This document shows, piece after piece, positions 19,632 through 53,801 of a DNA stretch of 64,000 nucleotides. The stretch lies in assembly GCA_047456305.1 (NCBI GenBank), contig CP179888.1, positions 253,307-317,306 of the forward strand, given 5' to 3'. Position 1 is the stretch's first letter. Every line of letters begins with the position of its first letter. Source of the stretch: Candidatus Nealsonbacteria bacterium (GTDB lineage: Bacteria; Patescibacteriota; Minisyncoccia; Minisyncoccales; CAZKCU01). The position numbers and the translations under genes were made by a program. The notes beneath the pieces are model-generated. The model searched no databases, had not been told where the DNA came from, and saw only the letters and a list, made by a program, of their open reading frames with translations.

Positions 19632-19703
19632 TGCCCTCGGTAGGAATCGAACCTACATCTGAAGCTCCGGAGGCCTCTGTTTTATCCATTAAACTACGAA
19701 GGC
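19632..19703 (-). tRNA. tRNA-Arg (anticodon CCG)
   Basis: Hand-folded 72-nt cloverleaf. Acceptor GCCTTCG/CGAGGGC, D stem GTTT/AAAC, anticodon stem GAGGC/GCTTC with loop CTCCGGA, T arm GTAGG-TTCGATT-CCTAC, discriminator A. CCA is not encoded. Confidence 0.9.
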
Positions 19704-19746
19704 ACAAAAGGGACGGGGTAATTCTACATCTCTTTAATTACCCGAA

Positions 19747-20259
19747 TTATAATGAAGGGTGAAGAAGAGATTTATCTCTTCGACTATTATATCTAAGTTT
19801 GTTTATTTCGTAACCTGCTATCCCAAAAGATACAGCTATATTTAAAGACTCTTTTTTGCCAAACATTGGCAGAGAAACTACTCTATTAACTCTTTTTAAA
19901 ACAGATTTCGAAACTCCCTTTATTTCATTTCCTATTACCAGGGCTAAGGGAAATTTTGCTTTAAACTTGTTATAGGGTAAACTATTTTTTGTTTGTTCCA
20001 AAGCCACAATAAAAACTTTTTCTTTTTTTAATTTTTCAATAACTCCCCAGCATTTCCAGTGATATTCCCATTTTATCCAGTTCTCTGCCCCTAAGGCTGT
20101 TTTTGAAATTTTTGGGTGGGGAGGAGTACCAGAAATTCCACAAAGAAAAATCTTATTTATCCCTAAAACATCGGCTGTTCTGAAAATAGAACCTATATTT
20201 TCCAAACTTCTAATATTATCACAAACGACATAGAATAACAATTCCTTTTTTAACTTCAT
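19747..20259 (-). CDS. SpoU/TrmH-family RNA 2'-O-methyltransferase
   Basis: LENIGSIFRTADVLG..., LVIGNEIKGVS, SLPMFGKKESLNIAVSFGIAGYEI. The last ~15 codons run into a hairpin repeat. Confidence 0.85.
   Translation of the reverse strand: MKLKKELLFYVVCDNIRSLENIGSIFRTADVLGINKIFLCGISGTPPHPKISKTALGAENWIKWEYHWKCWGVIEKLKKEKVFIVALEQTKNSLPYNKFKAKFPLALVIGNEIKGVSKSVLKRVNRVVSLPMFGKKESLNIAVSFGIAGYEINKLRYNSRRDKSLLHPSL
19761..19782. repeat. GAAGAGAT-tt-ATCTCTTC hairpin repeat (inside the 3' end of the trmH-like CDS)
   Basis: gaagaagagatttatctcttcg. The identical core recurs at 34880..34900 and 53699..53716. Confidence 0.85.
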
Positions 20260-20316
20260 TTCAAGATTATATATTTATACATTAGCGAATCAAGGTTCTC
20301 GCCGAAGGCGAGGTTC
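20260..20316 (-). repeat. Promoter-hairpin cassette, copy 2 (upstream of the trmH-like gene)
   Basis: Minus strand reads gaacCTCGCCttcGGCGAGaaccTTGATT-16 nt-TATAAT-cttgaa-ATG. Confidence 0.85.
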
Positions 20317-20385
20317 TTATTTTAAGTATTTTTTAATTTTCTTAAAATCTTCTTCTAATAACTTTTTATTTTGATTTCTTGTCCA

Positions 20386-21343: not shown

Positions 21344-22531
21344 TCATACTAATTTGAGTAATTCTTTTACTTTATCTTTCTTTTCCCAGGTAAATTCCGA
21401 CTCTTCCCTGCCAAAATGACCATAACAGGCGGTTTTTCGATAGATGGGCCGCAAAAGATTAAGCTGTTTAATTATTCCGCTTGGTGATAAATCAAAAATT
21501 TTGGGAATAATTTTAACTAATTTTTCTTCAGAAACTTTTCCTGTTCCGAAAGTATCTACACTTACCTCTGTTGGCTTTGTTCCTCCAATGACATAAGACA
21601 GTCTAACTTGGCATTTTTCAGCTAAATTTGCTGCCACAATATTTTTGGCAATATAGCGAGCCATATAGGCTCCTGACCTGTCAACCTTTGTCGAGTCTTT
21701 CCCGCTAAAAGAGCCACCGCCAATAGGAATTTGGGGGCCGTAAGCGTCAACAACATTTTTTCTCCCTGACATACCAGTATCAGAGACCGGTCCCCCAATG
21801 ACAAAGCGACCGGTGTTATTAATATAAATTTTTGTTTTTTTGTCTAATAAATTCTTGTCTACCCAAATTTTTCTATTAAAAATTTGGGCAGATGAACAAA
21901 CAGGTTTAATTACTCTTTTAATAATATCTCTTTTAATTCGATTTAAAGAGACATCGGATTCATGCTGAGCGGCAATTACCACATTGTCCAATCTTTTTGG
22001 TCGGCTATTTTCATATTCTATAGTAACCTGAGATTTTCCATCCGGTCTTAAATAAGGTAAAATTTTCTTTTTTCTAATTTCAGCCAGCCTCATGACCAAT
22101 TTATGAGCTAAGATAATTGGCAAAGGCATCAATTCTGGAGTTTCGTTACAGGCATAACCTACCGAACTACCTTGGTCGCCAGCCCCTTGTTTTTTAGTTC
22201 CGGTTCTTCTCACTCCTCTGGCAATATCAGGCGATTGTCCGTGAATAGTATTAAAAACTCCTACTGTCTTATAATCAAAGCCGTATTCTGGCTTATCATA
22301 GCCAATATCTTTGATTACCTCTCTGGCTAAATTATTCACGTCAACCCAAGTTTTAGTAGTAATTTCTCCGCCAACTATTACATAGCCATTGCCAACCATA
22401 ACCTCACAAGCCACCCGGCCATATTTATCATCCTTTAAAACTGCATCCAAAACAGTGTCAGCAATTTGATCTGCGACTTTGTCGGCGTGTCCAATGGCAA
22501 CTGATTCTGAAGTGAGAAAATATTTTTTCAT
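21344..22531 (-). CDS. metK: S-adenosylmethionine synthetase
   Basis: [20 protein letters not shown]-like N-terminus, [26 protein letters not shown]. 395 aa. Confidence 0.95.
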
Positions 22532-22593
22532 ATTTGAGTTATTTTATCATTTTATTTAAAAGTTTCAACCAGTCTTCTTTGAGCTCCAAGCCT

Positions 22594-23745
22594 TTACAAA
22601 AAAGGCGAAGGGTGAAAAGAAGTTAACCTTCTTTGAGCTTCAATTTTTTCTCGATTTGAAATTTTACTTTTTTGGATACCCTTCTTTATGAAATTTAGCA
22701 ATTTATCGTAGCATCTACGATCTACGAATTCCGGAGTTCCATCTTTCCCCCCGAACGCCCACGAGTATCTGGCTGGATCTTCATAAGAAGGTTTAGCTCC
22801 GTAAATTATTTCGCTGACTAGAGAAAGAGCCCGAATTGTTTTAGGACCTACACCTTTTAATGATAAAAGTTGTTCAAAATTTTTTGGCTCTTGAGATTTG
22901 GCAAAAAAGATGGTTTTTTCAAGCCGTTTCAAGTCAAATTTTTCTTTTTCTATGGGATGATGGTAAAATTCTACATCTTTTAATTCCATTTCGGTGAATC
23001 CTGCCATTCTTTTCTGCCTCATTAGAGAATTAGATTTTTCATTAATCAATTTAATATCTTTTAAAAATGTTTTTGGTTCCTTAGTTACCAATCCAGTTGA
23101 AATTTCTTTATTTTCTCTACTTTCTTTAGCAGTCAGATTTAAAGGTTTAACTTCAACATCAGAAATAATCCCTGAATGGGGTTCTTCAATAAAATCTTTG
23201 ACTTTAGAAGATAACCAGTGATATCTTCGAGCTTTTTGAAGACCTGTGTTCATTCCCTGTTGGACAATAGTATACTGGCCAGACTTTGAGAAAATTAAAT
23301 TATGATGATAGATAGAGAAATTATCCTGAATTAAAGCCGAGTCGACTTTGGCTGATATTTTGCTGGCGTAAATCATTTTGTCGATTTTCTCTATTGGCCA
23401 TCCTAAAAACTCTCCCCAATCCTGAATTTGCTGAGGAGTTTTTCTTGAAGTTTTTCCTTTCCCCCCGCAGATAAAAAGACCAAGGTCTGATTCTAAACCT
23501 CTTAATCCTTCTTTAAGAGCGCCCATTACTGTAGTAGTCAAGCCCGACGAATTCCAGTCAAATGCTAAAACACATCCAAAAGATTGAAACCAAACTGGAT
23601 CCGAAAGACGTTTCAAAAATTCCTCGGTTCCGAATTCCTCAACAATAGCTAAAACAATACCCCGCGACAATCTTTTCATCCTTTCAAATAGCCAATAGGG
23701 GCATCTTCCATAATCTAAGGGAACTGTGGCAATACCTGTTCGCAT
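22594..23745 (-). CDS. DUF763-family protein (archaeal-type, HhH-containing)
   Basis: MRTGIATVPLDYGRCPYWLFERMKRLSRGIV...FQSFGCVLAFDWNSSGLTTTV and HhH LKGVGPKTIRAL. Assigned from memory of the family pattern. Confidence 0.6.
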   Translation of the reverse strand: MRTGIATVPLDYGRCPYWLFERMKRLSRGIVLAIVEEFGTEEFLKRLSDPVWFQSFGCVLAFDWNSSGLTTTVMGALKEGLRGLESDLGLFICGGKGKTSRKTPQQIQDWGEFLGWPIEKIDKMIYASKISAKVDSALIQDNFSIYHHNLIFSKSGQYTIVQQGMNTGLQKARRYHWLSSKVKDFIEEPHSGIISDVEVKPLNLTAKESRENKEISTGLVTKEPKTFLKDIKLINEKSNSLMRQKRMAGFTEMELKDVEFYHHPIEKEKFDLKRLEKTIFFAKSQEPKNFEQLLSLKGVGPKTIRALSLVSEIIYGAKPSYEDPARYSWAFGGKDGTPEFVDRRCYDKLLNFIKKGIQKSKISNREKIEAQRRLTSFHPSPFL

Positions 23746-26505: not shown

Positions 26506-27126
26506 CTAAAAAGAGGAAAATTTTAGAATTGTTTTAATGAAATATTGATGAACTCTAAGGTCATCTGTTAACTCGGGATGGAAAGTCAGGGCTAAAATAT
26601 TGTTTTTCTTTACTCCGATTATTTCATTTTTATATCTAACCCAAATTTTAGTCTCTCCCCAAACTTTTTCTATCGCTGGTGCTCGAATGAAAACTGTTCG
26701 GAAAGATTTACTACCGAGCTCTGGTATTTTGACATCAACCTCAAAAGAATTAACCTGCCGGCCATAAGCATTTCTCAAAACTTCCATTTCCATCAAACCC
26801 AACAAAATTGTGCCAGTTCGTTTAACTTGTTCATCTCCTTTTTTTGCCAATAAAATAGTACCAGCGCAGGTTCCCAAAATTGGCAACTCTTCTTTGGCCA
26901 GCTTTATTATTTTCTCTCGGATTCCGATTTTGAGCATCAATCTATTTATAGTCGTTGATTCTCCGCCTGGTATCACTAAGCCAAGAATATCGTTCAAGTC
27001 TTCTCTTTTTCTCACTATTACAACTTCTCCTTCAAGACCGAGTTTTTTCATTGCCTTTTCCAAAGCTTCAACATGCTCTGAAACCGCACCCTGTAAAGCC
27101 AAAACTCCTATTTTTAATCTCTTCAT
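26506..27126 (-). CDS. pdxT: Pyridoxal 5'-phosphate synthase glutaminase subunit
   Basis: [18 protein letters not shown] (catalytic Cys), FHPEL. Overlaps pdxS by 4 nt. Confidence 0.92.
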
Positions 27127-28028
27127 GTGCTCCGAATTTGCATCAATTGATCCTTTGTTAGCGTTTTTATATCCAAGCTTGGCATTGCTTCTCCTAATCC
27201 TTTTGAAACTTCAGCTATCAATTTCGGATCGTCGTAGTGCAAAGTAGCTTCAACTATTACCTTGGCATATTTTGCCGGGTTTGAACTCTTAAATATTCCT
27301 GAGCCAACAAATATGCCATCGGCACCCATTTGCATCATTAGAGCAGCATCAGCCGGGGTGGCAATGCCACCAGCCGCAAAATTAACTACTGGCAACCTTC
27401 CTAATCTTCTTATTTCTTTAACCAATTTAAACGGAATCCGATATTCTTTGGCCTTTTTCTTAAGATGACCCTCTGACATTTTTTTCAAAGCTCCAATTTC
27501 TCTCTTTATCAGTTTCATATGTCTTACTGCCTCAACAACATTCCCCGTTCCAGGCTCTCCCTTTGTTCTGATCATAGCTGCTCCTTCATTTATTCTTCGT
27601 AGGGCTTCGCCTAAATTTCTTGCCCCGCAAACAAAGGGGGTAATAAATTTTCTTTTCTCGATGTGTTCCTCTTCGTCAGCCGGGGTCAAAACCTCGCTTT
27701 CATCAACCATATCCACACCCAAAGCCTGGAGAATTTGGGCTTCAGCAAAATGGCCAATTCGACATTTGGCCATAACCGGAATTGTTACTATCTCCATTAT
27801 TTCTTGGATCTTTTCTGGATCAGCCATTCTGGCCACCCCACCTCTTATCCTAATGTCAGATGGAACAGCTTCCAAAGCCATAACCGCCACTGCCCCGGCT
27901 TTTTCAGCTATCTTTGCCTGCTCAGCATTAATAACATCCATTATCACCCCACTTTTTTGCATTTTGGCAAAGCCCCTTTTTAGTCTCTCTGTTCCTCTAT
28001 TCTCAATAATTCTTTTAGTTATTTTCAT
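27123..28028 (-). CDS. pdxS: Pyridoxal 5'-phosphate synthase lyase subunit
   Basis: [62 protein letters not shown]. Confidence 0.95.
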
Positions 28029-28159
28029 AAAATATTATTTATGGGCAATAAATTGCTAATAGTCGGCTTTTAATATACCTATAATAACAAAAATTTTGAA
28101 TAAGAACAAGTTTTTAAAAATATCTTCTTTTTAATCTTACTTTAATTTTCCCTAAGAAT

Positions 28160-28187
28160 AAAAGCCCCGTAAAATACGAGGCTTTTT
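28160..28187 (-). terminator. Hairpin terminator after the GH130 gene
   Basis: aaagccccg-taaaata-cgaggcttttt lies immediately 3' of the stop on the minus strand. Confidence 0.5.
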
Positions 28188-28190
28188 AAA

Positions 28191-29141
28191 TTAATATTCG
28201 GTACATTTCTCCAGGTACTCAAGAACATCGTCTAAATTAGCAATGGCTAGCGCTACCACTGAATCCGCAGCTCCATAATAAACTAAAAGTTCATTTGTTT
28301 TTTCATCAACAACCGCGCCGCAGGGAAAAACAACATCGTCTACATCACCCACTCTTTCGTAACTCTCTTTCGGACCAAAGACCCAATCTCGACTCCGGCG
28401 AATCACCTCAAGACTTTCTAAATCCAATAAAACCAGGCCAACTCGATAAATAGTACCTGAGGATGTATTTCTCCCCCCATGGTAAATAATCAACCAACCT
28501 TCTGGAGTTTCAATCGGCGGTGGACCTAACCCCACTCTGTGAGAATCCCAAGCTCTTTGTCTAGTAGAAATTAGCATCCTGTCTTTCCCCCAAAAATTCA
28601 GGTCTTTAGAAAAAGAAACCCAAATATCAGCCCTTCTATTAACAATAGGTCTGTTTATAAGGGCATAGTATCCTTTAATAGTTTTAGGGAATAAAGAAGC
28701 ATCTTTATTTGGAGGTATTAACTGATGCCCTAAACGTTTAAAATTAGAGAAATCTTTAGTTGCTATCAAAGAAATACCAGGAGGTTCTCCAACCACCTCA
28801 TTAAAGAAAGAAACGCAGGTAATTATATATTCTTGCCGTTCTTCCACCCAAACAATCCTCGGATCTTCTAATCCAAATGCCGCTTCGCCAAAATCTGATT
28901 CTGCCACTAATACTGGTTCGTGACTTATCCGCCAATTTGTTTTGCCGTCTTTACTTTTAGCAATTGTCAAATGGGAATATCCTTGTTTATCTTCAACCCG
29001 TACCAAAAGCAATATCTCATCATTAAATTTTATTGCGCCAGGATTAAAAACTGATGCCGCCCCATAGGGCCAATTTTCTGAAGTTAGAATCGGGTTTTCT
29101 TCATATCGCCTGAAAATCTCCTCAAATTTTCCTTTACTCAT
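28191..29141 (-). CDS. GH130-family glycoside phosphorylase/hydrolase (DUF377-type beta-propeller)
   Basis: NPGA, LEDPRIVWV, YYGAADSVVALA. A strong AAGGAGGG lies 5 nt upstream of the ATG. Confidence 0.75.
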   Translation of the reverse strand: MSKGKFEEIFRRYEENPILTSENWPYGAASVFNPGAIKFNDEILLLVRVEDKQGYSHLTIAKSKDGKTNWRISHEPVLVAESDFGEAAFGLEDPRIVWVEERQEYIITCVSFFNEVVGEPPGISLIATKDFSNFKRLGHQLIPPNKDASLFPKTIKGYYALINRPIVNRRADIWVSFSKDLNFWGKDRMLISTRQRAWDSHRVGLGPPPIETPEGWLIIYHGGRNTSSGTIYRVGLVLLDLESLEVIRRSRDWVFGPKESYERVGDVDDVVFPCGAVVDEKTNELLVYYGAADSVVALAIANLDDVLEYLEKCTEY

Positions 29142-29693: not shown

Positions 29694-30895
29694 AAATTGA
29701 TTTTTTTAAATTCTTCTCGAACAACTGTCCTATCATCCCACGGTATTTTTTTACCCCCTTTTACACAAATCCAGGGTTCACAACCCTTACCAGTGATAAC
29801 CACTATATCATTTGTTTTGGCTAATTCCAGCGATTTTCTAATCGCCTCTCTTCTATCTAATATTTTTATTGCCATTTCTCTAGTCCCATCAGCAACTTGA
29901 TTTATAATTTCCATTGGGTCTTCGTCATAAGGGTCCTCATTAGTAACAATTACTTCCTGACAATATTTGGCGGCTATTTTTCCTAAAACCGGCCTTTTCC
30001 ATTTATCTCGGCCTCCTCCACAAGCACCGAGCACACAAATTAGTTTAGTAGTTTGTAGTTTGTAGTTAGTAGTTAGGGTTTGATAAACTTTTTCTAAAGC
30101 ATTGGGGGTAAAAGCGTAATCCACAAATATCTTAAAGGGGCTTGAAATCACCTCTTCCATTCTTCCGGGAATGCCGCCAGCTGCCTCTAATACTTTTTTA
30201 CAAATCTCTAAATTAATCCCCTGGGACAAGCCAACGCAAGTTGCGGCTAATGCATTATAAATATTAAAATCACCTATCAACCGAAGTTTAAATTGGATAT
30301 CTTTGTTATTAATATCTCCTTTATTTAATCCGTAGCTATATTTTTTCTTTGCTGGAAATCTCAAAAAATATTCCCTGTTTTCATCGTCTAAGTTTATAAT
30401 ATGAACCCCTTTGGTTATTTTAAAAAGTTTTCCTTTAGCGGCTCGATAATTTTCGAAGCTACCGTGAGTTTCAATGTGTTCTGGACTTAAATTTGTAAAA
30501 ACTGCTACCTCAAAATCAATGAATTTATGCCGGTACTGCTTTATTCCTTCAGACGTCACTTCCAAAACTACATACTTACACCCAGAGTTTAGTGCCTGCC
30601 TTAAAAATCTCTGAAGTTTGAAACGGCCGGGCATTGTCATCTTTAAAGTATTTGGCCACTCTTTTCCACCTATTTTAAATTTAATCGAAGATAAAGAAGC
30701 AACCTTGCATCCAGCTGCTACTAAAATTTTTGATGCCAATTCAACAACCGTTGATTTTCCATTGGTTCCGGTAACTCCAATAACAATTAATTTTCGCGAG
30801 GGAAATCTGTAAATTATTGCTCCTAAAAAAGCTAATAAAAAATGATACCAGTCCAACAGAAAAGAAGGAATAAACTTTTTAATTAAATCTTTCAT
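29690..30895 (-). CDS. Mur ligase family protein (MurE-like, lacking the N-terminal domain)
   Basis: GVTGTNGKST, LEVTSEG, DYAFTPNALEKV, GACGGGRDKWKRP. Confidence 0.7.
   Translation of the reverse strand: MKDLIKKFIPSFLLDWYHFLLAFLGAIIYRFPSRKLIVIGVTGTNGKSTVVELASKILVAAGCKVASLSSIKFKIGGKEWPNTLKMTMPGRFKLQRFLRQALNSGCKYVVLEVTSEGIKQYRHKFIDFEVAVFTNLSPEHIETHGSFENYRAAKGKLFKITKGVHIINLDDENREYFLRFPAKKKYSYGLNKGDINNKDIQFKLRLIGDFNIYNALAATCVGLSQGINLEICKKVLEAAGGIPGRMEEVISSPFKIFVDYAFTPNALEKVYQTLTTNYKLQTTKLICVLGACGGGRDKWKRPVLGKIAAKYCQEVIVTNEDPYDEDPMEIINQVADGTREMAIKILDRREAIRKSLELAKTNDIVVITGKGCEPWICVKGGKKIPWDDRTVVREEFKKINL
30038..30085. repeat. Heptamer-type AAACTAY tandem tract inside the Mur-ligase CDS
   Basis: The coding-strand (minus) reading is aactactaactacaaactacaaactactaaactaattt. 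It resembles the uvrB tract at 32672. Confidence 0.6.
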
Positions 30896-31856
30896 TTCTT
30901 TTTAATAAATCTTCTATATCTTGTATGATTGACCCCATTACCGTTGGAGTGGCTCCAGCACCAGGTCCAGTGAGAATATATGTTCCGTCGATTCCATAAA
31001 TCAAAGCAGCATTATTAACTCCCGGAGGTACTAACTGTAAAAATAAAGGGTTTTGGGTGCGATTCTTAAATCCACATGATACCAACCATTCATTTATCGG
31101 GAATTTAAATTCTCCAACTACATCCTCCTTGTTTTCTTCTTTGGCAATCGAAACAATATATCTCCTAAAAGTTGCCTCTCTAACCAATTTCTTCAAACCA
31201 ATCCCACCGATTTTCTGAGCATCGATATTTTTAGCTCTGATTTCACCGAAACCGCAAATATTAAGTAGTACGGAAATCTTCATTGGGATATCTTTACAAG
31301 CCTCGGTATTAATTACTTCAAGCACTTCTTGGGTTCCTGGTTCGGCGTAGCCCAATTTTTTTGCTTCTTCAACTACCTCATCCAAGGCTTTTCCTCTACT
31401 TAATCCATCAAAAATATAATTCAAAGTACCATTTATAACCAGATGGATTTCTTTTATCCCAGGAGTTAACCGATCTTTTAACCAATGTAATAGTCTAGTC
31501 CCACCACCTACAGTAGCAGAATAGCCAATTTTGCTTATCCAAGGTTTCAACTCAGGGAAATAATTACCTAATGCTCCTTTCTCAGAGCTCACCACTGGAA
31601 TTCCTTTTTCTACTAAATTTTTTATGTAATTATAGGCAATATTTCCATCGTCAAGCGTAGAAATACACAAGACAGCGATGTCTACTTTTTCGAAATACTT
31701 CAGCCAATTATTCAGTTCATCAATCTTTTTTTCTCCGGAATCATATATCCCTGAAGTTATAGCAATTACTGGGACCGCCCATCCTTTTTGAAGTACCCTT
31801 TTTTTTACTTCCTGACCAATTCTACCATAACCAATAAGGCCTATTTTTGCTTTCAT
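30879..31856 (-). CDS. Homoserine-dehydrogenase-family NAD(P)-binding oxidoreductase
   Basis: N-terminal IGLIGYGRIGQEV Rossmann motif; INGTLNYIF and LGYAEPG motifs of the HSDH catalytic domain. Confidence 0.55.
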   Translation of the reverse strand: MKAKIGLIGYGRIGQEVKKRVLQKGWAVPVIAITSGIYDSGEKKIDELNNWLKYFEKVDIAVLCISTLDDGNIAYNYIKNLVEKGIPVVSSEKGALGNYFPELKPWISKIGYSATVGGGTRLLHWLKDRLTPGIKEIHLVINGTLNYIFDGLSRGKALDEVVEEAKKLGYAEPGTQEVLEVINTEACKDIPMKISVLLNICGFGEIRAKNIDAQKIGGIGLKKLVREATFRRYIVSIAKEENKEDVVGEFKFPINEWLVSCGFKNRTQNPLFLQLVPPGVNNAALIYGIDGTYILTGPGAGATPTVMGSIIQDIEDLLKRNERFN

Positions 31857-31987: not shown

Positions 31988-33940
31988 ATGTTCAAGTTAA
32001 GGTCCTCATTTAAACCGACCGGCGACCAACCCCAGGCAATTGAAAAATTGACTAAAAATCTAAAAGATGGGAGGCGATTTAATGTGCTTTTAGGGACGAC
32101 TGGTAGCGGTAAAACCTATACAATGGCAAGGCTAATAGAAAAGGTCCAAAAACCAGTTTTGCTGATATCGCCAAATAAAACTTTATGCGCTCAATTGTTT
32201 CAGGAGTTCAAAGAGTTTTTTCCTGAAAATGCCATTCATTACTTTGTTTCATACTATGACTATTATCAACCTGAAGCTTATATCCCCCAAACCGACACCT
32301 ATATTGAAAAAGATGCTAAAATCAATGAGGAAATTGACAGACTAAGACATTCAGCAACTCAGGATTTGTTAATTAGAGATGATATTATTGTTGTCGCCTC
32401 GGTTTCTTGCATTTATAATATTGGATCGCCAGAAACTTATCAAAAAGTCTCTTTAGAAATTAAACCCGGCCAAAAAGTCAAGAGAAGGGATTTTTTAAAA
32501 AATCTTTGTGTTTTACAATACCGGAGAAATGATATTGATTTCAAGCCCGGAACTTTCCGAGTCAGAGGCAATATTGTCGATATTTATTTAGTAACGGGTA
32601 AAGAAATTTTGAGGGTGGAATTTTCCGGCGATCAAATTTCTTCCCTTTGGCAAGGAAATCCCGATTTTAAAAATAACTATAAACTAAAAACTATAAACTA
32701 TAAACTAATTTATCCGGCTCACTTTTGGGTTACCCCTGAAGAGAAATTGAGCATCGCCATTGAAAATATAAAATTAGAACTACAAGAGAGATTGAAAGAA
32801 TTAAAAAAGCAAAAAAAGTCGCTGGAAGCTCAAAGATTGGAACAGAGAACAAATTATGATTTAGAAATGTTAAAAGAAACCGGCTATTGTCACGGAATCG
32901 AGAACTACTCCCGGCATTTAGAATTTAGGGAACCCGGACAAGCTCCTTATACTTTAATTGATTACTTTCCGAATAATTTTATAGTTTTTATTGATGAATC
33001 CCATATGACCCTACCCCAGCTTCATGCTATGGCAAATCAAGATAGAGCCAGGAAGAAAACCCTCGTTGAATATGGTTTCAGGCTTCCTTCAGCTGTTGAT
33101 AATAGACCTTTAACCTTTGAGGAATTTGAAAAAAAGATTAATCAGGTAATTTATATTTCAGCCACTCCAGGAGAGGAAGAAAAAAGAAAGGCAACTAAAG
33201 AAAATATTATTGAACAATTAATTAAGCCAACCGGATTATTAGAACCCTCAATTGAAGTCAGACCAACAAGAAATCAAGTGAAAGATTTAATAAAAGAAGT
33301 TAAAAGAAGAGTTGCAAAAAGACAAAGAACTTTAGTAATCACTCTCACCAAAAGATTGGCCGAAGCCCTCTCTGATTATTTAGCCGAGGAGGGAATTAAA
33401 ACCCAATGGCTACATTCTGAAATCAAAACCTTAGAGAGACCTCAAATTTTAAAGGAATTGAGAGAAGGAAAATATGATGTTTTGGTTGGGATTAATCTTT
33501 TAAGAGAGGGGTTGGACTTACCAGAAGTTGCTTTAGTTGCAATTTTAGATGCTGATAAAGAAGGATTTTTAAGGTCAGAAACTACTTTAATTCAAACTAT
33601 GGGTCGGGCAGCCAGACACGAAGCTGGCCATGTTATTTTATATGCTGATAAAATTACCAAATCTATGAAAGCTGCGATAAAAGAAGTGAAAAGAAGAAGA
33701 AAAATTCAAATGGAATATAACAAACTTCACAATATTACACCGAAACCAATTATTAAACCGATAAGAGAATGGCCATTTGCCTCCAGGGAAAAGCCCACTG
33801 TTCTCACACAGGAGATAGGGTCAGAATTTTGGATAATCCGGGATAAAAAACTTCTAGAAAAAGAAATGAAAACAGCTGCCCACAATCTTGATTTCGAGAG
33901 GGCGGCAGAAATTAGAGACTTGATAAAAAAACTAAAATAA
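31988..33940 (+). CDS. uvrB: Excinuclease ABC subunit B
   Basis: GDQPQAI, GTTGSGKT, YYDYYQPEAY, DESH, helicase motifs, C-terminal UVR domain FERAAEIRD. ATG 31988 preferred over GTG 31928. Confidence 0.95.
   Translation: MFKLRSSFKPTGDQPQAIEKLTKNLKDGRRFNVLLGTTGSGKTYTMARLIEKVQKPVLLISPNKTLCAQLFQEFKEFFPENAIHYFVSYYDYYQPEAYIPQTDTYIEKDAKINEEIDRLRHSATQDLLIRDDIIVVASVSCIYNIGSPETYQKVSLEIKPGQKVKRRDFLKNLCVLQYRRNDIDFKPGTFRVRGNIVDIYLVTGKEILRVEFSGDQISSLWQGNPDFKNNYKLKTINYKLIYPAHFWVTPEEKLSIAIENIKLELQERLKELKKQKKSLEAQRLEQRTNYDLEMLKETGYCHGIENYSRHLEFREPGQAPYTLIDYFPNNFIVFIDESHMTLPQLHAMANQDRARKKTLVEYGFRLPSAVDNRPLTFEEFEKKINQVIYISATPGEEEKRKATKENIIEQLIKPTGLLEPSIEVRPTRNQVKDLIKEVKRRVAKRQRTLVITLTKRLAEALSDYLAEEGIKTQWLHSEIKTLERPQILKELREGKYDVLVGINLLREGLDLPEVALVAILDADKEGFLRSETTLIQTMGRAARHEAGHVILYADKITKSMKAAIKEVKRRRKIQMEYNKLHNITPKPIIKPIREWPFASREKPTVLTQEIGSEFWIIRDKKLLEKEMKTAAHNLDFERAAEIRDLIKKLK
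32672..32712. repeat. Heptamer tandem tract AACTATA/AACTAAA x5 inside uvrB
   Basis: aactataaactaaaaactataaactataaactaattt encodes NNYKLKTINYKL. Confidence 0.7.
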
Positions 33941-33968
33941 CTTAATATCAAACTATAAACATCCCACA

Positions 33969-34006
33969 TCGGAAGGGGGTCGGGAGAACCCTTCGGTTCT
34001 TCCGTG
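33969..34006. repeat. GC-rich hairpin element (AGAACC-cttc-GGTTCT core) between uvrB and rpsT
   Basis: cggaagggggtcgggagaacccttcggttcttccg. Further GC-rich cgagcg-type sequence extends to about 34080. Confidence 0.6.
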
Positions 34007-34100
34007 TAGGAAAATATTAAAAACCGAGGGTTTTTAAAGAGCGGTGTTAGTCGAGCGATGCGAGACGTGCCGCGACCTAACTAGGTGATACCACTACTAT

Positions 34101-34375: not shown

Positions 34376-35500
34376 CTATATCTCGGTGATTAGTAAATCT
34401 AAGGCTGTCTGAGGGTCTATTTTCCCAGTTTTTATATTTAAATCTGCCTGAAAAATTTTTTGGTAGATTTTTTTTAGTTCATCAATTGTAAACCTTTTAG
34501 CTTGTTGAATTGACTTTCTTATTACATAAGGATGTAACTTTAGTTTTTCGCTAAGTATTCGCATATCGTTTACATATAATTCAGTTTTTGATTCGCATGA
34601 TTTTACCAAAAGTAAGTTCCGGAACTGAAAATTTATCATTGAAAGAAGATACAAAGGTGAATCCCCTTTTTCTAAATGTTTATGAATTAACAAAAGAGCC
34701 TGCTTTTTATTTCCTGAAGATATGGCATCGATAGTTTTAAAAATATCGGTTTCGATTTTTGGTCTAACTAAAAGTTCAACATCTTCTTCTCCAATTTCTT
34801 GTTTCTTCTTGTAGTCAAAGAGAACTTCGTTCTCTTTTCCACCTTCGCTCACCGAGCGAGGCGAAGCCGAGCGAAGGTTAAGAAGAGATTTATCTCTTCG
34901 CCTCGCTACGCGCGGCGCTCGGTAACAAACAAGTTTTCTAATTTCATTGCTAATCTGCCAAAGGTCATTCCCTATAAATTCAATTAACTTTCCTAAAGCT
35001 CTATCTGAAACCTGACACTGATATTTTTCAAATTCTTTCTTGACCCAGTTTTTTAATCTTTGACTTCCCAAAAGTTTAAATTCCTGGAATTTTGCCTGCC
35101 CTTTTAGAAAATTAAATAAGGCGTCATTTTTAGAAAACTCACCTTCTTCATAGAATAAAATTATATCCCCCGCACCAGAAACTTCGTTTCGGTGCAGGAC
35201 TGGTCCAGCACCGAGCTCCGCTCTGGTGCTGGGTTTTGAATCTCTGAATTTCTTAGAATTTTCTAAAAATTTTCTTTTAAACTCACTATTGGAAAAAGCG
35301 TTTTTTAATACCATCAATTTTTTTTCCTGAAACATTGAAATTATTTGAAACTCGCCTTTAAATTCCTGGTAGCTATCTTTTTTGAAATCAAAATACTTCA
35401 AATTCAATCCACTTTTGGAAGTTTTTTTGTAGTGCTCAATTATCTCATTCAACTTTTGTCGCGACCTGTAAGTATCAGGTCCATAAAGAAAGATAATCAT
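34376..35500 (-). CDS. holA: DNA polymerase III delta subunit, carrying two in-frame GC-rich repeat insertions
   Basis: MIIFLYGPDTYRSRQKL... N-terminus, C-terminal delta-like helical domain. ATG 35500 preferred; the track start 35515 lies in a hairpin. Confidence 0.75.
   Translation of the reverse strand: MIIFLYGPDTYRSRQKLNEIIEHYKKTSKSGLNLKYFDFKKDSYQEFKGEFQIISMFQEKKLMVLKNAFSNSEFKRKFLENSKKFRDSKPSTRAELGAGPVLHRNEVSGAGDIILFYEEGEFSKNDALFNFLKGQAKFQEFKLLGSQRLKNWVKKEFEKYQCQVSDRALGKLIEFIGNDLWQISNEIRKLVCYRAPRVARRRDKSLLNLRSASPRSVSEGGKENEVLFDYKKKQEIGEEDVELLVRPKIETDIFKTIDAISSGNKKQALLLIHKHLEKGDSPLYLLSMINFQFRNLLLVKSCESKTELYVNDMRILSEKLKLHPYVIRKSIQQAKRFTIDELKKIYQKIFQADLNIKTGKIDPQTALDLLITEI
34817..34923. repeat. 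Composite GC-rich hairpin element inserted in frame in holA (~35 codons)
   Basis: aaagagaac-ttc-gttctcttt + ttccaccttcg... + gaagagat-tt-atctcttc + cgcctcgctacgcgcggcgctcgg. Shares ctcttttccaccttcg with the intergenic copy at 44240. Confidence 0.8.
35172..35232. repeat. GC-rich double-hairpin insertion in frame in holA
   Basis: gcacc-agaaacttcgtttc-ggtgc and ccagcacc-N12-ggtgctgg. Encodes ...STRAELGAGPVLHRNEVSGAG.... Confidence 0.7.
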
Positions 35501-35534
35501 AGACCGAGCTTCCATTTATGGAAGCGAAGGTAAA

Positions 35535-35555
35535 GAAGAGGACTAAGTCCTCTTC
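35535..35555. repeat. GAAGAGGAC-taa-GTCCTCTTC hairpin overlapping the fpg stop codon
   Basis: gaagaggactaagtcctcttc. The tag stop of fpg lies in the loop or stem region. Confidence 0.8.
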
Positions 35556-36460
35556 GCCCTTTGGCAACTAGGACAGTAATGGACACTTCTGCCCCCTAAT
35601 TTTACCCTTTTTATTTTTGTGCCGCAACGCGGACAAGGTTCTCCTTCTCGGCGATAAACTTTTCTTTCTTTATCGAAATATCCTCTTTCTCCAGAAATCC
35701 TCCGAAAATCAGAAATACTTTCTCCACCAAGTTTAATTGCCTTTGCTAAAATTTCTCTCATTGCCTGATAAATTTCTTTCAATTCCTCATCAGTTAATTT
35801 TGAAACATTTTTGAAAGGATAAATTTTCGCCTGCCACAAAATTTCATCAGAGTAAATATTGCCAATCCCAGCAATGACAGTTTGGTCCATTAAAACTTGC
35901 TTTATCTTACCTCTTTTCCCTTTAAAACATTCTTTAAATTTTTCAAAAGTAAAATCTTTTTCTAAGGGTTCCGGGCCAAAAGAACATAATTCCTCTTTAA
36001 GTCCTTCATTATTCCAAAGTTCGACCTTGGCAAATTTTCTTAAATCTGACAGGGCTAACATTTGACCATTATCTAAAGTAAATAATAAATGAATATAGGT
36101 ATTAATTTTCTCCGCCAAGGGTCCGGCAGGAGGAATCCATTTCCCTCTGCTGAATTCCCACTTACCCAGGAGTAAGTGGCCAGTTAATTTTTGATGAATT
36201 AACAAAGAACGGTTCGAGGGGCCCACTTCTGTGGGAGGGCGGTGGGGAGGTATGTAGTCTGATAAATTAAAAATAATATTTTTCCCTCTTCGCCAGATTT
36301 TTTGAATTTTTTTACCCTTGATTTCTTTTTTAAATTGCTCAAAATCTTCGGGTTTTCTTACTACCTTGGGAAAATCGGTCCAAACATCAATAAAAGTCCT
36401 GTTAAGGACCTTTTTATTTAAATCTCGGATTATTGTTTCTACTTCGGGTAATTCCGGCAT
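35543..36460 (-). CDS. mutM: Formamidopyrimidine-DNA glycosylase
   Basis: MPELPEVETI N-terminus (the catalytic Pro2 requires start 36460, not 36484), H2TH, C-terminal zinc finger CPRCGTKIKRVKLGGRSVHYCPSCQ. Confidence 0.9.
   Translation of the reverse strand: MPELPEVETIIRDLNKKVLNRTFIDVWTDFPKVVRKPEDFEQFKKEIKGKKIQKIWRRGKNIIFNLSDYIPPHRPPTEVGPSNRSLLIHQKLTGHLLLGKWEFSRGKWIPPAGPLAEKINTYIHLLFTLDNGQMLALSDLRKFAKVELWNNEGLKEELCSFGPEPLEKDFTFEKFKECFKGKRGKIKQVLMDQTVIAGIGNIYSDEILWQAKIYPFKNVSKLTDEELKEIYQAMREILAKAIKLGGESISDFRRISGERGYFDKERKVYRREGEPCPRCGTKIKRVKLGGRSVHYCPSCQRAKRT
36210..36250. repeat. GC-rich insertion in frame in fpg
   Basis: cggttcgaggggCCCACttctGTGGGagggcggtggggagg encodes PPHRPPTEVGPSNR inside the N-terminal beta-sandwich. 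Confidence 0.55.
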
Positions 36461-37257: not shown

Positions 37258-37356
37258 TTCAAGATTATATATTTACCCTGTTAAATGCTGCTTTGCAGCA
37301 ATTTCGTCTTTGACGAAATTATTTAACAGGGTGAATACCTTAGCGAATCAAGATTC
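37258..37356 (-). repeat. Promoter-hairpin cassette, copy 3, interrupted by nested hairpin element copy B
   Basis: ttcaagattatatattt (-10 half) and ttagcgaatcaagattc (-35 half) are separated by the 56-nt element at 37276..37331. Confidence 0.8.
37276..37331. repeat. Nested three-way hairpin element, copy B (inverted relative to copy A)
   Basis: Outer stem ccctgttaaat/atttaacaggg encloses gctgc-ttt-gcagc and aatttcgtc-ttt-gacgaaatt. Confidence 0.85.
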
Positions 37357-37364
37357 TTATTATT

Positions 37365-41620: not shown

Positions 41621-43003
41621 ATGCCAGAAGTTTCAAAAAAAATTACAGGTCTAATAGAAATTTCTCCCAAAATACTTGCTGAAACTCAAAAGAAAATAAA
41701 AAATATTTCTGATTTTAAGGAAAAGATTGAAGAGTTTTTAAAAAAGAGTGTCTCGGAAATTTTAGAAGTTATTTTGGGAGGGGGAATAAGTCTCGATGTC
41801 TCTGACATTCACATTGAGCCAGAAGAAAATCAAGCTAAAATCCGAGCCAGAATTGATGGAATCTTACAAGATGTAATAATTTTTGATTTAAAAACATATC
41901 AAACCCTTCTCTCTCGGATTAAGCTTGTTTCTGGAATTAAATTAAATATTACTGATCGACCCCAGGATGGGAGATTCTCTATTGTAATGCCACCAGCCCG
42001 CCCAAGTTTTGCAAAACAAAATTTGGGTGGGCCATCTGAGCCAATTGAAATTAGGGCCTCAACCTTGCCAGCTGAGCATGGAGAATCAATTGTCCTGAGA
42101 ATTTTGAACCCAAAAGGCTTAATTGAAATTGAGGAATTAGGGGTGAGAAAAGATTTATTAGAAATTTTTAAAAAGGAAATAAAAAGGCCGAATGGAATGA
42201 TTATTGTTACCGGGCCTACCGGCTGCGGGAAAAGTACAACTCTATATGCCTTTTTAAAAACAATCCAAAAACCAGAGATTAAAATTATAACTATTGAAGA
42301 CCCTATTGAGTATCATTTAAAAGAGATTTCCCAGACTCAAATTTCTCCGGAAAAAGGTTATGATTTTGCCTCAGGTCTCAAATCCATTATGCGCCAAGAC
42401 CCTGATGTAATTTTAGTAGGAGAAATAAGAGATATGGAAACCGCCAAGATTAGTCTCCAGGCAGCCGTAACCGGCCATTTAGTTTTAACTACCTTGCATA
42501 CTAATGATGCTGCTGGAACAGTGGTCAGGTTGGAAGCCTTGGGAGAAAAACCAGTAAACATTGCTCCGGCAATAAACATGGCTGTCGCCCAAAGATTGGT
42601 CAGAAAAGTTTGCCAGAAATGCCTGAAGCTTGAAAAAATTTCTTCGCTTGATTTTAAAAAAATTAAAAAAGCCCTCAAGGAAATCCCAAAGAAAATAATT
42701 AATCCTCCTAATGGGGTTTCTCCACTATTGAAGGGCAAAAGTTCTGCTGCCTTAAAAATCCCTCAAGTTAAAGGGTGTAAAGATTGTAATTTTACAGGTT
42801 TCAGGGGCCGAATCGGGATTTTTGAGGCTTTTTTAGTTGATAATGAGATGGAAAAATTTATTCTAACTTCGCCTTCAATTTCAGCCCTAAGAGAAAAAGC
42901 TATAAAAAAAGGAATGCTCACTATGTACCAGGATGGAATAATAAAGGTCTTAGAAGGAATTACTACTATCAAAGAGGTAGAAAGAGTAACCGGAATGCAA
43001 TGA
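41621..43003 (+). CDS. GspE/PilB-family type II/IV secretion (pilus assembly) ATPase
   Basis: PQDGRF, Walker A GPTGCGKST, Asp box, Walker B ILVGEIRD, His box TGHLVLTTLHTND, tetracysteine CQKC...CKDC. Confidence 0.9.
   Translation: MPEVSKKITGLIEISPKILAETQKKIKNISDFKEKIEEFLKKSVSEILEVILGGGISLDVSDIHIEPEENQAKIRARIDGILQDVIIFDLKTYQTLLSRIKLVSGIKLNITDRPQDGRFSIVMPPARPSFAKQNLGGPSEPIEIRASTLPAEHGESIVLRILNPKGLIEIEELGVRKDLLEIFKKEIKRPNGMIIVTGPTGCGKSTTLYAFLKTIQKPEIKIITIEDPIEYHLKEISQTQISPEKGYDFASGLKSIMRQDPDVILVGEIRDMETAKISLQAAVTGHLVLTTLHTNDAAGTVVRLEALGEKPVNIAPAINMAVAQRLVRKVCQKCLKLEKISSLDFKKIKKALKEIPKKIINPPNGVSPLLKGKSSAALKIPQVKGCKDCNFTGFRGRIGIFEAFLVDNEMEKFILTSPSISALREKAIKKGMLTMYQDGIIKVLEGITTIKEVERVTGMQ
41996..42032. 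repeat. 37-nt near-perfect palindromic element inside the pilB-like CDS
   Basis: gcccgcccaagttttg-caaaa-caaaatttgggtgggc forms a 16-bp stem. Same family as 58271..58305. Confidence 0.85.
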
Positions 43004-43233: not shown

Positions 43234-44217
43234 ATGAGAAATTTGTCAAGAGTAACGGTTCTCCTTCTTATTTTTTTCTGGTTAGGGACGACTGGAATAT
43301 TTTCAACTAACTTTATTTTTGCTACAGAAAAAATAGATATTAATACCGTTCCCATTGAAGATTTGGTTAAAATTATTCATATAGGAGAAAGTAGGGCAAG
43401 AGAATTGATTTCTCTAAGGCCCTTCTCTTCTTTAGATGAACTCACCAAAATAAAAGGTATAGGCGAAGCGAGGCTTAGGGATATCAAAGAACAGGGTTTG
43501 GCGTGGGTCACCCCTCATCAATCAGAAGTTCAACCTGAAGCAAAACCTCAACCCAATCCTGAGCTTCAGCCTATTGAGGAGTCCGAAATCCAACCCGAGC
43601 CAAAACCAATAACTTATCCTTTAGCTATTGTTATAAACGAACTTCTTCCTAATCCTGAGGGAATACCAGATGCTGAAGGAGAATGGATTGAAATTTTTAA
43701 TCAGAATAATTTTGAAGTTTTGCTTTCTGACTGGAAAATAACTGACACAGTAGGAAAAATTACTACTTATTCTCTCCCAAAAGGAACAAAAATTCCTCCT
43801 CAGGGCTTTTTAGTTCTTTCTCGGCCAACTACTAAAATCACTTTAAATAATGATGGTGATGGTCTAAAACTTATTCAACCTGATGGAAAAATAGTGGATG
43901 AGGTAACTTATGAAAAAGCTCCTCGAGGCCAGTCCTTTAACCTTGTTAACTCTGATTGGGCCTGGAACACGAATTTAACCCCTGGGGCAGCAAATTTTAT
44001 TCCTTTTGCTCAACCAGAAGAAAAAACAGAAACTGAACTCCTGAAAGATAAATCTGCTACTGAACCCGAAACAAAAAGAGAATTAGCAGCCGCAGGTCTA
44101 CAAATCTCAAAACCCTCAAAGTCTTTATTTGTTTTATTAATTGCTTTGGCTCTCGCCATTTCCTCAGGAATAATAATCTTAGTCTTAAAAAAGAAACTAT
44201 CAAGTACCCGAGCGTAG
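43234..44217 (+). CDS. ComEA-like helix-hairpin-helix DNA-binding protein with a lamin-tail domain and C-terminal TM anchor
   Basis: Signal/TM segment; HhH INTVPIEDLVKIIHIGESRARELI...IKGIGEARLRDI; LTD IVINELLPNPEG...GEWIEIFN; C-terminal TM LFVLLIALALAISSGIIILVL. Confidence 0.75.
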   Translation: MRNLSRVTVLLLIFFWLGTTGIFSTNFIFATEKIDINTVPIEDLVKIIHIGESRARELISLRPFSSLDELTKIKGIGEARLRDIKEQGLAWVTPHQSEVQPEAKPQPNPELQPIEESEIQPEPKPITYPLAIVINELLPNPEGIPDAEGEWIEIFNQNNFEVLLSDWKITDTVGKITTYSLPKGTKIPPQGFLVLSRPTTKITLNNDGDGLKLIQPDGKIVDEVTYEKAPRGQSFNLVNSDWAWNTNLTPGAANFIPFAQPEEKTETELLKDKSATEPETKRELAAAGLQISKPSKSLFVLLIALALAISSGIIILVLKKKLSSTRA

Positions 44218-44221
44218 CGAA

Positions 44222-44303
44222 GTCAAAGAGCGCTTCGCGCTCTTTTCCACCTTCGTCCCGCAAACGGGACTCGGTGGCTGAAGAAGAATAAATATTCTTC
44301 GCC
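44222..44303. repeat. Array of three GC-rich hairpins (aaagagcg/cgctcttt; ccacc..gtcccg/cgggac..ggtgg; gaagaata/tattcttc)
   Basis: Read directly from the sequence. Begins right after the stop of the ComEA/LTD gene. Confidence 0.8.
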
Positions 44304-44308
44304 TAGGG

Positions 44309-45096: not shown

Positions 45097-45102
45097 CGAA
45101 TC

Positions 45103-45171
45103 GAAGAACATTCGTTCTTCTCTACCCTTCGCTGCGGCTCGGGTAGATGAAGAAGAGAACGTAGTTCTCTT
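45103..45171. repeat. Array of three GC-rich hairpins (gaagaac/gttcttc; ctaccc/gggtag; aagagaac/gttctctt)
   Basis: Read directly from the sequence, between yebC and the next gene. Confidence 0.8.
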
Positions 45172-45189: not shown

Positions 45190-45504
45190 ATGCCAACTGA
45201 ACAATTTATTAGAAAGAAAGCAGTGGAACTTTTAAGAAAAGAGGGTTGGATCACCTGGTATCCTTCTCGTGCGAAATATAAACAAAATGACATTTTCGGA
45301 ATTATTGATTTATTAGCCGTCAAAAAAAAGAAATTGAAGAAAATTCAACTGACCACCCTCCCGAACGTTTCGGCCAAGAGAAAAAAAATAACAAATTTCC
45401 TTAAAACATTTAAAGTAGAGCTTCTCATTGAGATTTGGGCCTGGGATAAACGGAAGAGAAAATTCAGAAAAGAAAAGATTAATATAAAAATAAAAGGGGC
45501 TTGA
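45190..45504 (+). CDS. Hypothetical basic protein (weak resemblance to a PD-(D/E)XK nuclease fold)
   Basis: 104 aa. LRKEGWITWYP...DIFGIIDLLAVKKKK pattern. Preceded by TAAAAT-6 nt-ATG. Confidence 0.5.
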   Translation: MPTEQFIRKKAVELLRKEGWITWYPSRAKYKQNDIFGIIDLLAVKKKKLKKIQLTTLPNVSAKRKKITNFLKTFKVELLIEIWAWDKRKRKFRKEKINIKIKGA

Positions 45505-53671: not shown

Positions 53672-53720
53672 CCGCTTAAGCGATAGCGCAGAGCAAAAGA
53701 AGAGATTTATCTCTTCGCCC
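53672..53720. repeat. GC-rich hairpin element with a GAAGAGAT-tt-ATCTCTTC core
   Basis: cgcttaagcg...gaagagatttatctcttcgccc lies directly after the mgtC stop. Confidence 0.8.
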
Positions 53721-53801
53721 ACTGAAGGAGAGATGATAAAATAACTAAAAGAAAAAAGGAACCGTTCGTTCAGCTCACTGTAATTTACTTCGCAAATTAA
53801 A

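Follow-up and report, generated by a model that had tools for sequence, protein, structure and literature searches.

In-frame GC-rich hairpin repeats in the holA gene of a Candidatus Nealsonbacteria genome

In the Candidatus Nealsonbacteria genome studied here, holA, the gene of the DNA polymerase III delta subunit, contains two GC-rich blocks of hairpins within an otherwise AT-rich reading frame. Where do such blocks come from, and how is the encoded protein able to accommodate them? We investigated this within a stretch of 64,000 nt (contig CP179888.1, positions 253,307 to 317,306; assembly GCA_047456305.1), in the following called the window, for which a previous sequence-only reading had described the blocks as in-frame insertions shared with intergenic repeat arrays. 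We conclude that both blocks are probably selfish, non-autonomous palindromic repeats of the type of repetitive extragenic palindromic (REP) sequences and Rickettsia palindromic elements (RPEs), which have spread within and between Patescibacteria and are tolerated at permissive sites of holA. Block 1, the one closer to the 3' end of the gene, is referred to as insert B and is made of units of a family termed E; block 2 is a copy of another element, termed A. Coordinates are compiled in Table 1. Loci are given by L numbers (DNA loci from relatives) and P numbers (HolA homologs), and a slash within a motif marks an insertion point.

Table 1. Positions of holA, its inserts and the E copies of the window
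Feature	Position	Strand	Details
holA (DNA polymerase III delta subunit)	34376..35500	minus	374 aa from ATG at 35500; intact; both inserts inside
Insert B, 111 nt	34814..34924	minus	two nested E units; ~(Y)RAPRVARRRDKSLLNLRSASPRSVSEGGKENEVLFD(Y), HolA residues ~195-231
Outer unit E1, 3' part	34814..34850	minus	GCGAAGGTGG linker, hairpin, GAC end; nhmmer model 17-53, E = 1e-09
Inner unit E2	34853..34901	plus	opposite to E1, at its GCGAAG/GT linker; nhmmer model 1-49, E = 4e-10
Outer unit E1, 5' part	34902..34924	minus	(TAC)CGAGCGCCGCGCGTAGCGAGG, degenerate first hairpin
Element A, 66 nt, two hairpins	35168..35233	minus	in frame, 22 codons, PSTRAELGAGPVLHRNEVSGAG, HolA residues 90-111
Element A, hairpin 1	35205..35232	minus	CCAGCACC-A-GAGC GGA GCTC-GGTGCTGG; minimum free energy fold as DNA and RNA
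Element A, hairpin 2	35169..35198	minus	CTGCACCGAAAC GAA GTTTC-T-GGTGCGG; minimum free energy fold as DNA and RNA
Complete E unit, fpg-holA spacer	35502..35559	plus	nhmmer E = 8e-12; DNA fold z = -5.5
Intergenic composite E array	44207..44305	plus	clean 99-nt insertion vs L001, flanked TA...TA; holds ctcttttccaccttcg
Intergenic E-related unit	53672..53722	plus	exact core gaagagatttatctcttcg; in frame in HolA of L076 too
Partial E-type hairpin, exact core	19762..19782	plus	adjoins tRNA-Arg (19630-19704, minus)
E unit between yebC-like gene and next open reading frame	45100..45140	minus	nhmmer E = 3e-04; motif cluster

The holA gene and its two inserts

HolA of the clade comprises 311-315 aa compared to 374 aa in the window, and the two inserts account for 59/374 residues. 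We derived the insert boundaries from DNA alignments to the syntenic loci of insert-free relatives, which provides base-exact junctions and a clean pattern of presence and absence. The two blocks persist in these alignments, with their limits corrected to 34814..34924 (37 codons) and 35168..35233 (22 codons), and neither of them aligns to conserved HolA residues. Both are absent from the closest HolA relatives (93-96% aligned identity; P0004-P0006, L001). Locus L003/P0002 shows block 2 together with a 57-nt short form of block 1, while L005/P0003 is without block 2 and carries block 1 plus an additional nested unit of 45 nt. The arrangement found in the window recurs with the same junctions in two independent assemblies (GCA_013282455.1 and GCA_964518365.1) and is therefore not an assembly artefact.

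The blocks also stand out by composition and folding. GC content is 0.55-0.58 at 34820-34909 and 35180-35239, with about 0.30 in the rest of holA and 35.5% in the whole window; there is no third GC jump in the gene. As DNA, both are far more stably folded than shuffled sequence (block 1, z between -3.7 and -4.3; block 2, z = -5.8), and the RNA fold energies of the two blocks are -40 and -51.7 kcal/mol. The description as GC-rich hairpin blocks in an AT-rich gene thus holds, as do the repeated words reported along with it: the core gaagagatttatctcttcg of the first block occurs three times in the window (19764, 34882, 53699; expected by chance 0), and ctcttttccaccttcg is common to the first block (34832) and the intergenic array at 44240 (expected by chance 0.08). 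Within the window, sharing with intergenic arrays applies to block 1, i.e., to its E units; block 2 has no other copy there, and its relatives belong to other genomes.

The host gene itself is a regular delta subunit gene. Pfam detects the DNA_pol3_delta_C domain (PF21694, 1.3e-27) as well as the N-terminal DNA_pol3_delta domain (PF06144, 5.5e-05), and a Foldseek search with the predicted fold returns the delta subunits of Bacillus subtilis (3zh9, 4.8e-18) and Escherichia coli (8giy_A and 1jr3_D) as top matches. That is, N- and C-terminal domains and the three-domain clamp-loader fold are all present. Among 3112 HolA homologs, the match with 100% identity is named DNA polymerase III subunit delta by NCBI and stems from a Candidatus Nealsonbacteria metagenome-assembled genome (MAG). 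The gene order fpg-holA-rpsT-uvrB is kept in L001, L003 and L005. The open reading frame (ORF) is uninterrupted along its full length, holA is single-frame in 85/85 related loci, and no second holA copy was found in the 64-kb window; we thus see an intact gene and not a pseudogene. Translation most likely starts with the ATG at 35500 (MIIFLYGPD), which is where the orthologs begin. The start at 35515 from the ORF list adds MEARS, a peptide derived from an upstream hairpin unit.

The length of either insert is divisible by three and neither contains a stop codon, such that the reading frame is kept, as had been noted before. The same is observed among close relatives, for which all internal coding indels are multiples of three and intergenic indels show any length. 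Two genic indels only appear to deviate, i.e., the one at L008 2298 is really 51 nt long and the one at L050 7639 is located at the C-terminal end of uvrB. This restriction of internal genic indels to multiples of three suggests that the inserts are translated. An AlphaFold2 model of HolA (mean predicted local distance difference test, pLDDT, of 73.7), a check proposed with the initial description, locates them: the sole segments with pLDDT <50 are residues 90-110 and 194-231, i.e., the two inserts, both of which are modelled as coil. The element A segment forms a domain I loop between helix 82-86 and strand 113-118, and insert B is found in the linker of domains II and III, between the last domain II helix (180-192) and the start of domain III.

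Architecture and copies of element A and the E family

Element A consists of two related hairpins, each about 28-30 nt long, that make up a dimer, and its ends form an imperfect 12-nt terminal inverted repeat. In holA it sits between ..GATTCAAAA and GATATAATT.., with TTCAAAA/GATATA being the empty site in L001 and L005; the target bases are not duplicated, and two filled/empty pairs of element A show an overlap of 0 bp. Copies were sought by local blastn and by a scan for a 28-nt hairpin 1 pattern, using one genome per species. Hairpin 1 is fixed by the scan pattern and hairpin 2 is free to vary. The searches matched 29 further DNA stretches, and the full-length copies (n=30, 23 distinct sequences) show identities of roughly 90-100%. 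Their deviations from the consensus affect few positions, mostly the two triloops and the ACYAGTC spacer. Full-length copies are present in MAGs labelled Nealsonbacteria, Parcubacteria and Paceibacteria as well as in several labelled Saccharibacteria; MAGs labelled Uhrbacteria and Vogelbacteria contain hairpin 1 only.

Recent mobility of element A is documented by an intergenic copy (L046 17672-17737) that L052 lacks, with flanks that are 99% identical. The 5' flanks of 27 distinct sites show A at positions -3, -2 and -1 in 22, 22 and 18 cases, respectively, and two copies are found head-to-tail behind the GCGGGG end of another copy. In holA of L115, which encodes a HolA of about 58% identity to that of the window, element A occupies the identical nucleotide position and matches in 61/66 positions, compared to 83/120 in the flanks. 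The site is therefore either a recurrent target or has precisely lost element A in intermediate lineages. Four copies (L088 6339, L090 2529, L092 7355, L103 792) have another small hairpin, e.g., CCCCGCACCAGAGAAATCTCGGTGCGGGG, either in place of the inner stem-loop of hairpin 2 or as an expansion of it, i.e., hairpin modules nest within element A, too.

Inside bona fide genes we find about 18 independent sites of element A, all with the same orientation and phase. The resulting peptide is PSTRA(K/E)LGAG(L/P)VPHRN(E/K)VSGAG, and the hosts are HolA, UvrB, UvrC, PolX, TatD, an HDAC-family protein, Pth, PRPP synthetase, dCTP deaminase, a MiaB-like enzyme, DegV/Dak2, PilB and others. The only reverse-orientation genic copy (L091) is part of an ORF without Pfam support. 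For the common variant, 4/6 frames are open, and the TAG from the ACTAGT spacer closes the other two. Given that AAA is spread nearly evenly over the codon phases of the window genome (0.37/0.33/0.30), target choice cannot explain the frame bias. It is due either to strong selection against other phases after insertion or to a feature of the insertion that is not yet understood.

Insert B turned out to be composite. While block 1 had been taken for one insertion, only the insertion as such stands, i.e., the block consists of two nested E units. An E unit follows the plan ACCGAGC, hairpin 1, GCGAAGGT, NNN, hairpin 2, G(A/C)C. In the outer unit E1, the 3' hairpin (34817-34837) is AAAGAGAAC-GAA-GTTCTCTTT with a perfect 9-bp stem, and the 5' part aligns to the short form CGAGCCCCGCGACAGCGGGGCGAAGG in L015, L007 and L019. 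The inner unit E2 contains the core gaagagaTTTAtctcttcg of the sequence-only reading (34882-34900; exact copies at 19764 and 53699), and its edges are ambiguous by 5-10 nt due to a CGAAG/CTTCG microhomology. The composite nature is evident from the nhmmer matches as well as from the comparisons of L011 with L015 and of the window with L003; the difference to the short form in L003 and L015 is 54 nt. The junction of the whole insert reads ..AGTTAC/AAG.., where TAC can be assigned to either side, and this site is empty in L001 and about 50 other loci.

This position, after KKLVSY, is an insertion hotspot: the 77 distinct holA sequences comprise 28 with an insert here, of 12-159 nt, and about 50 without. 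The commonest occupant has 54-57 nt and reads CGA, the hairpin GCCCCGC GACA GCGGGGC, GAAGGTGG, the hairpin AAAGAGAAC GAA GTTCTCTTT and GAC(Y)AC. In variant E units, hairpin 2 is swapped for GAAGAGA-TTTA-TCTCTTC, the core word mentioned above. The hairpins of the family measure 18-21 nt and come in pairs, tandems and nests, with tandem units in L027 (three units) and L047 and nested ones in the window's holA, L005, L011 and the array at 44207.

To assess the spread of the family, we built a profile from nine units and searched 1.1 Mb of related DNA with nhmmer. Of the 95 copies, 46 are intergenic; the rest are located in long ORFs, in both orientations and several frames, and some of these ORFs are mere upstream extensions. 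For 20 diverse units, 97.7% of the stem cells pair and 12/16 pairs change on both sides, which is reached by 0/500 shuffles, while slid controls pair in 43-51% of the cells. The linkers ACCGAG and CGAAGGT are invariant in the same units. The covariation of the stems implies that the hairpin architecture is preserved, which is the signature expected of a structure-recognising process. GTAG or GTGG is found next to hairpin 2 in a subset only, where the flank is TAC or CAC.

E copies also rewrite gene ends. The unit in the fpg-holA spacer (CCGAGC, hairpin GCTTCCA TTTA TGGAAGC, GAAGGT, AAA, hairpin GAAGAGGAC TAA GTCCTCTTC, GCCC) provides the stop codon and a new C-terminus of fpg (..CQRAKRT, then stop) and also the false upstream ATG with MEARS for holA. 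L001 lacks this unit, and its fpg and holA genes share an ATGA overlap. The array at 44207..44305 supplies the upstream LTD-domain gene with its terminal residues STRA and its stop codon; within the array, a reverse unit is nested in a forward unit at the same GCGAAG/GT position as in insert B. In other loci, HolA has a C-terminal PSEAR extension that likewise stems from a repeat unit.

Origin of the inserts

How might the inserts have arrived? We picture element A entering holA after a short purine/A run (AAA/) without target duplication. An E unit would have entered at AGTTAC/AAG, and a second E unit would then have been nested inside it in opposite orientation. With each insertion being a multiple of three and stop-free, the gene would have stayed open, and the inserts would most likely be translated into disordered, hydrophilic segments within a domain I surface loop and the domain II-III linker, where we infer the extra peptide to be harmless or neutral for HolA. 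The elements would be mobilised in trans by an enzyme acting on folded single-stranded hairpins. Members of the IS200/IS605 and REP-RAYT (REP-associated tyrosine transposase) families leave no target duplication, insert 3' of a short sequence, have hairpins at their ends and produce head-to-tail copies. Because element A likewise shows no duplication, a fixed short 5' target, end hairpins and head-to-tail copies, we tentatively name an HUH/Y1-type enzyme as used by these systems as a possible, though rather uncertain, mobilising activity.

Several observations are difficult to reconcile with this picture or weaken it. No transposase or integrase was found in the window, based on the ORF list and on Pfam searches of the gene blocks specific to the window and of neighbouring genes. 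A tblastn search with IS200 TnpA and E. coli RAYT in the 1.1 Mb of loci gave E = 0.28 at best, which is a weak negative given that the queries are approximate. Hairpin 1 of element A has 0 matches in IMG/VR viral contigs, and no blastn match of element A was found among GenBank phages; hence, a phage vector has no support from these searches. Among E units, the junctions vary (TAC, TA, AC, or microhomology of 0-12 nt) and fit no single known transposition chemistry, and some E "insertions" may be deletions in the comparator. In addition, a frame-blind selfish element does not predict that nearly all genic copies of element A use a single frame, and the probable translation of the holA inserts is deduced from the frame constraint.

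For E units no target-site duplication is definable, and the junction data fit a short duplication or none. A full-length parent of element A was not found in the hairpin 1 scan, and no search was made for a gene flanked by hairpins 1 and 2. In Rfam, the region 33800-36600 matches only mir-8364, with 23 bits compared to a gathering score of 67 (E = 0.48). The attC sites of integrons, CRISPR or TIGR arrays, and inteins or introns were dismissed by architecture and size and given that no arrays or cassettes are present.

A more far-reaching version, which we regard as doubtful, sees element A as a horizontally spreading, ORF-adapted derivative of an HUH-type transposon that has entered the same permissive loops of essential enzymes repeatedly across the Candidate Phyla Radiation (CPR). 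Of its four open frames, element A may then persist in hardly more than one, as a benign 22-residue loop rich in Gly, Ala, Pro and Ser. If true, it would be a coding-adapted single-strand transposon derivative, a form not yet described in these bacteria, and a general source of lineage-specific protein insertions in CPR genomes. In a still stronger version the conserved peptide may be functional, e.g., as a shared binding or processing tag.

Alternatively, the hairpins could be functional cis elements that are kept in place, with the peptide being a by-product. Conceivable roles are to slow ribosomes where domains meet, to determine RNase action or stability, or to adjust the expression of the fpg-holA operon. 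This would be in accordance with the highly stable and significant mRNA structures (-40 and -52 kcal/mol), the covarying stems with invariant linkers, the recurrence of different families at shared positions of a protein (core position 174 and the SK/DIIL site of HolA, and one PilB loop), and intergenic copies at gene ends that could serve as terminators or stabilisers. We nevertheless consider it unlikely, since presence and absence vary between genomes with 93-99% identical flanks, one element is found in >15 unrelated genes plus spacers, and about 50 holA orthologs do without any insert at position 174. Furthermore, E units are found in both orientations relative to the host gene, unlike what a strand-specific RNA role would demand. 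It is very unlikely that the mature HolA is insert-free because ribosomes bypass the hairpins or an unrecognised RNA excision takes the inserts out. Internal genic copies would need to be neither multiples of three nor stop-free if they were skipped, yet all of them are, and genic element A is limited to one open frame and avoids those containing TAG. With 66 nt it is also far below the size of known self-splicing introns, and it has no Rfam match. What speaks for a bypass is that the hairpins are strong enough to block ribosomes and that translation bypasses GC-rich hairpins inserted into AT-rich mitochondrial genes of fungi.

Still less can be said for the blocks being lineage-specific HolA loops that were inherited vertically and repeatedly lost without being mobile, which we judge extremely improbable. 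The 66-nt sequence is also found in unrelated genes and spacers, which already contradicts such loops; they would account for block 2 being at the identical position in two HolA lineages of about 58% identity and for the short form of block 1 being widespread among orthologs. On the other hand, element A of L115 is better conserved than its flanks (92% vs 69%), the GC content of 0.55-0.65 departs from the ~0.30 of the gene, and one intergenic copy differs in presence between loci whose flanks agree to 99%. Finally, we give practically no weight to a mis-assembly or a decaying holA pseudogene. The source is indeed a MAG, and palindromes can provoke assembly errors, but two other independent assemblies share inserts and junctions. 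Decay, in turn, conflicts with the intact ORF, the single-frame state of the 85 related loci, the conserved domains and delta fold, and the lack of a second holA in the window.

Given that we favour mobile palindromic repeats, how do the two elements relate to known systems? RPEs are fused in frame into conserved genes and tolerated there (PMC2229807, PMC10969869). As with these, we observe palindromic repeats in a reduced, AT-rich bacterial genome, both in intergenic regions and in frame in housekeeping genes, with a conserved peptide. In contrast, RPEs have 105-150 bp and one long stem-loop, whereas the elements studied here have 66 nt and 54-57 nt with two short hairpins each, and the host belongs to the Patescibacteria instead of Rickettsia; i.e., the two are set apart by size, stem and host. 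A further difference is that element A is about 90% or more identical across hosts whose HolA share only 55-58%.

Intragenic REP dimers encode 20-30 aa and are found in uvrA/B/C/D, recBCD, polA and dnaE, where related species in some cases share the site (PMC3733652). The resemblance covers imperfect palindromes of 20-40 nt in dimers or clusters and repair or replication hosts, which are holA, uvrB, uvrC and polX in our case; fpg holds a different family. The clustered and mosaic arrangements also resemble bacterial interspersed mosaic elements (BIMEs). Different from REP/REPIN sequences, element A is without GTAG or CGTC tag (E units have GTAG/GTGG in a subset), most of its copies are intragenic whereas REPs are mainly extragenic, and no RAYT was found in the 1.1 Mb of loci by the tblastn search, a weak negative.

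Miniature derivatives of IS200/IS605 elements (PATEs) compare with element A only, given its oriented insertion after AAA/ without duplication and hairpins at both ends. Here, the differences are that the loci and their surroundings yielded no Y1/HUH transposase and that the E junctions TAC/TA could just as well be a 2-3 bp duplication. The mobile GC clusters and double-hairpin elements of fungal mitochondria are short GC-rich palindromes that invade an AT-rich genome, use in-frame sites, nest and stack. Their likeness to A and E is one of description; they belong to organellar, eukaryotic systems with unrelated sequences. Transposable elements of the miniature inverted-repeat type (MITEs; Correia, ERIC, RUP) are structured, of small size and non-autonomous, and some are joined to ORFs in frame (PMC2229807). 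Element A resembles these DDE-type elements in its imperfect 12-nt terminal inverted repeat. They differ in that element A is without TA or other duplication, E units show variable junctions and no inverted repeats, and both have half the usual MITE size or less.

Further repeats in the window and implications

In-frame GC-rich inserts of further families are found in other genes of the window, including fpg and the pilB-like and rtcA-like genes, the latter two with perfect palindromes. These represent a third family, CCCGCCCAAGTTTTGCAAAACAAAATTTGGGTGGGC, located at 41997-42032 (pilB-like T2SSE ATPase, plus) and 58270-58305 (367-aa rtcA-like ORF, minus), with an RNA fold of -26.7 kcal/mol (z = -6.3). 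The pilB palindrome is absent from L001 and L010, and the same PilB loop holds element A in L019, i.e., different families strike the same permissive loop. A fourth, weakly palindromic GC-rich family consists of CTACAnnCCnCCCACCnnnnCCTCCC, a small hairpin and GGCCCCTC, with copies at 36216-36257 (fpg, minus), 60292-60344 (80-aa Cys-rich ORF, plus) and L067 6499-6547. Both window copies use the same frame and encode DYIPPHRPPTEVGPS and DYNPPTASSHSLKCERAP. L001, L005 and L009 all lack the copy in fpg (42 nt); as a poor palindrome (DNA fold -4.8 kcal/mol, z = -2.4) it was rejected as a member of A or E and assigned to this separate family.

Upstream of genes, a cassette is found at 20261-20318, 19467-19538 and 37261-37359 that combines the GC hairpin GAACCTCGCCTTCGGCGAGAACC with a promoter-like TTGATT-16 nt-TATAAT and is absent from L001. 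Its copy at 37261-37359 carries a 63-nt AT-richer hairpin between the -35 and -10 boxes. AT-richer hairpins (..CCCTGTTAAAT..ATTTAACAGGG..) also form a repeat family with copies at 18637-18699 and 37268-37330, an inverted pair (I1) of 92% complementarity that is absent from L001 as well. The uvrB-rpsT spacer contains GC-richer blocks of 75 nt (33938-34012) and 69 nt (34028-34096), which L001, with its overlapping genes, lacks. Neither block folds significantly better than shuffled sequence (z = -1.4 and -0.6), and they match neither A nor E.

Besides repeats, the window differs in gene content from the syntenic L001, in which the blocks 21344-23745, 26506-29141 and 30879-31856 are absent. They encode a full-length metK with DUF763, pdxT/pdxS with a GH130 phosphorylase, and a homoserine-dehydrogenase-like gene (hom); the L001 counterpart of metK is a 97-aa S-AdoMet_synt_C fragment only. 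Where L001 has RuvC (Pfam) after the yebC-like gene, the window has a 104-aa ORF without Pfam match (45190-45504; ..DIFGIIDLLAVKK..). Judged by eye, its sequence shows a PD-(D/E)xK nuclease-like motif, and it may be a non-orthologous resolvase replacement. Positions 1-1600 are a Lys/Glu-rich coding region with a repeated 300-nt segment (381-680 and 792-1091; 411 nt spacing, 92% identical) and many purine-rich sub-repeats that are unrelated to the hairpin elements.

What do the holA inserts imply? In-frame palindromic repeats as such are textbook knowledge in the case of Rickettsia, and REPs of this kind in repair genes are on record as well; our full-text literature searches gave no description of such in-frame repeats for Patescibacteria/CPR. 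What should surprise the specialist is the CPR-wide, frame-specific spread of element A. The inserts explain odd extra segments in HolA and other essential proteins, which annotation, alignment, phylogenomics and structure prediction of CPR genomes would otherwise take for lineage-specific protein features. They also alter gene ends by providing stop codons and false N-terminal extensions and by splitting genes that overlap in relatives. The peptide LGAG(L/P)VPHR can be searched in existing groundwater metaproteomes, likewise HolA peptides spanning SEGGKENEVLFDYK. Given that element A is near identical in hosts with only 55-58% identical HolA, it marks DNA exchange among ultra-small, supposedly isolated symbionts, and its near-exclusive use of a single frame is a natural experiment on which peptide insertions essential proteins tolerate.

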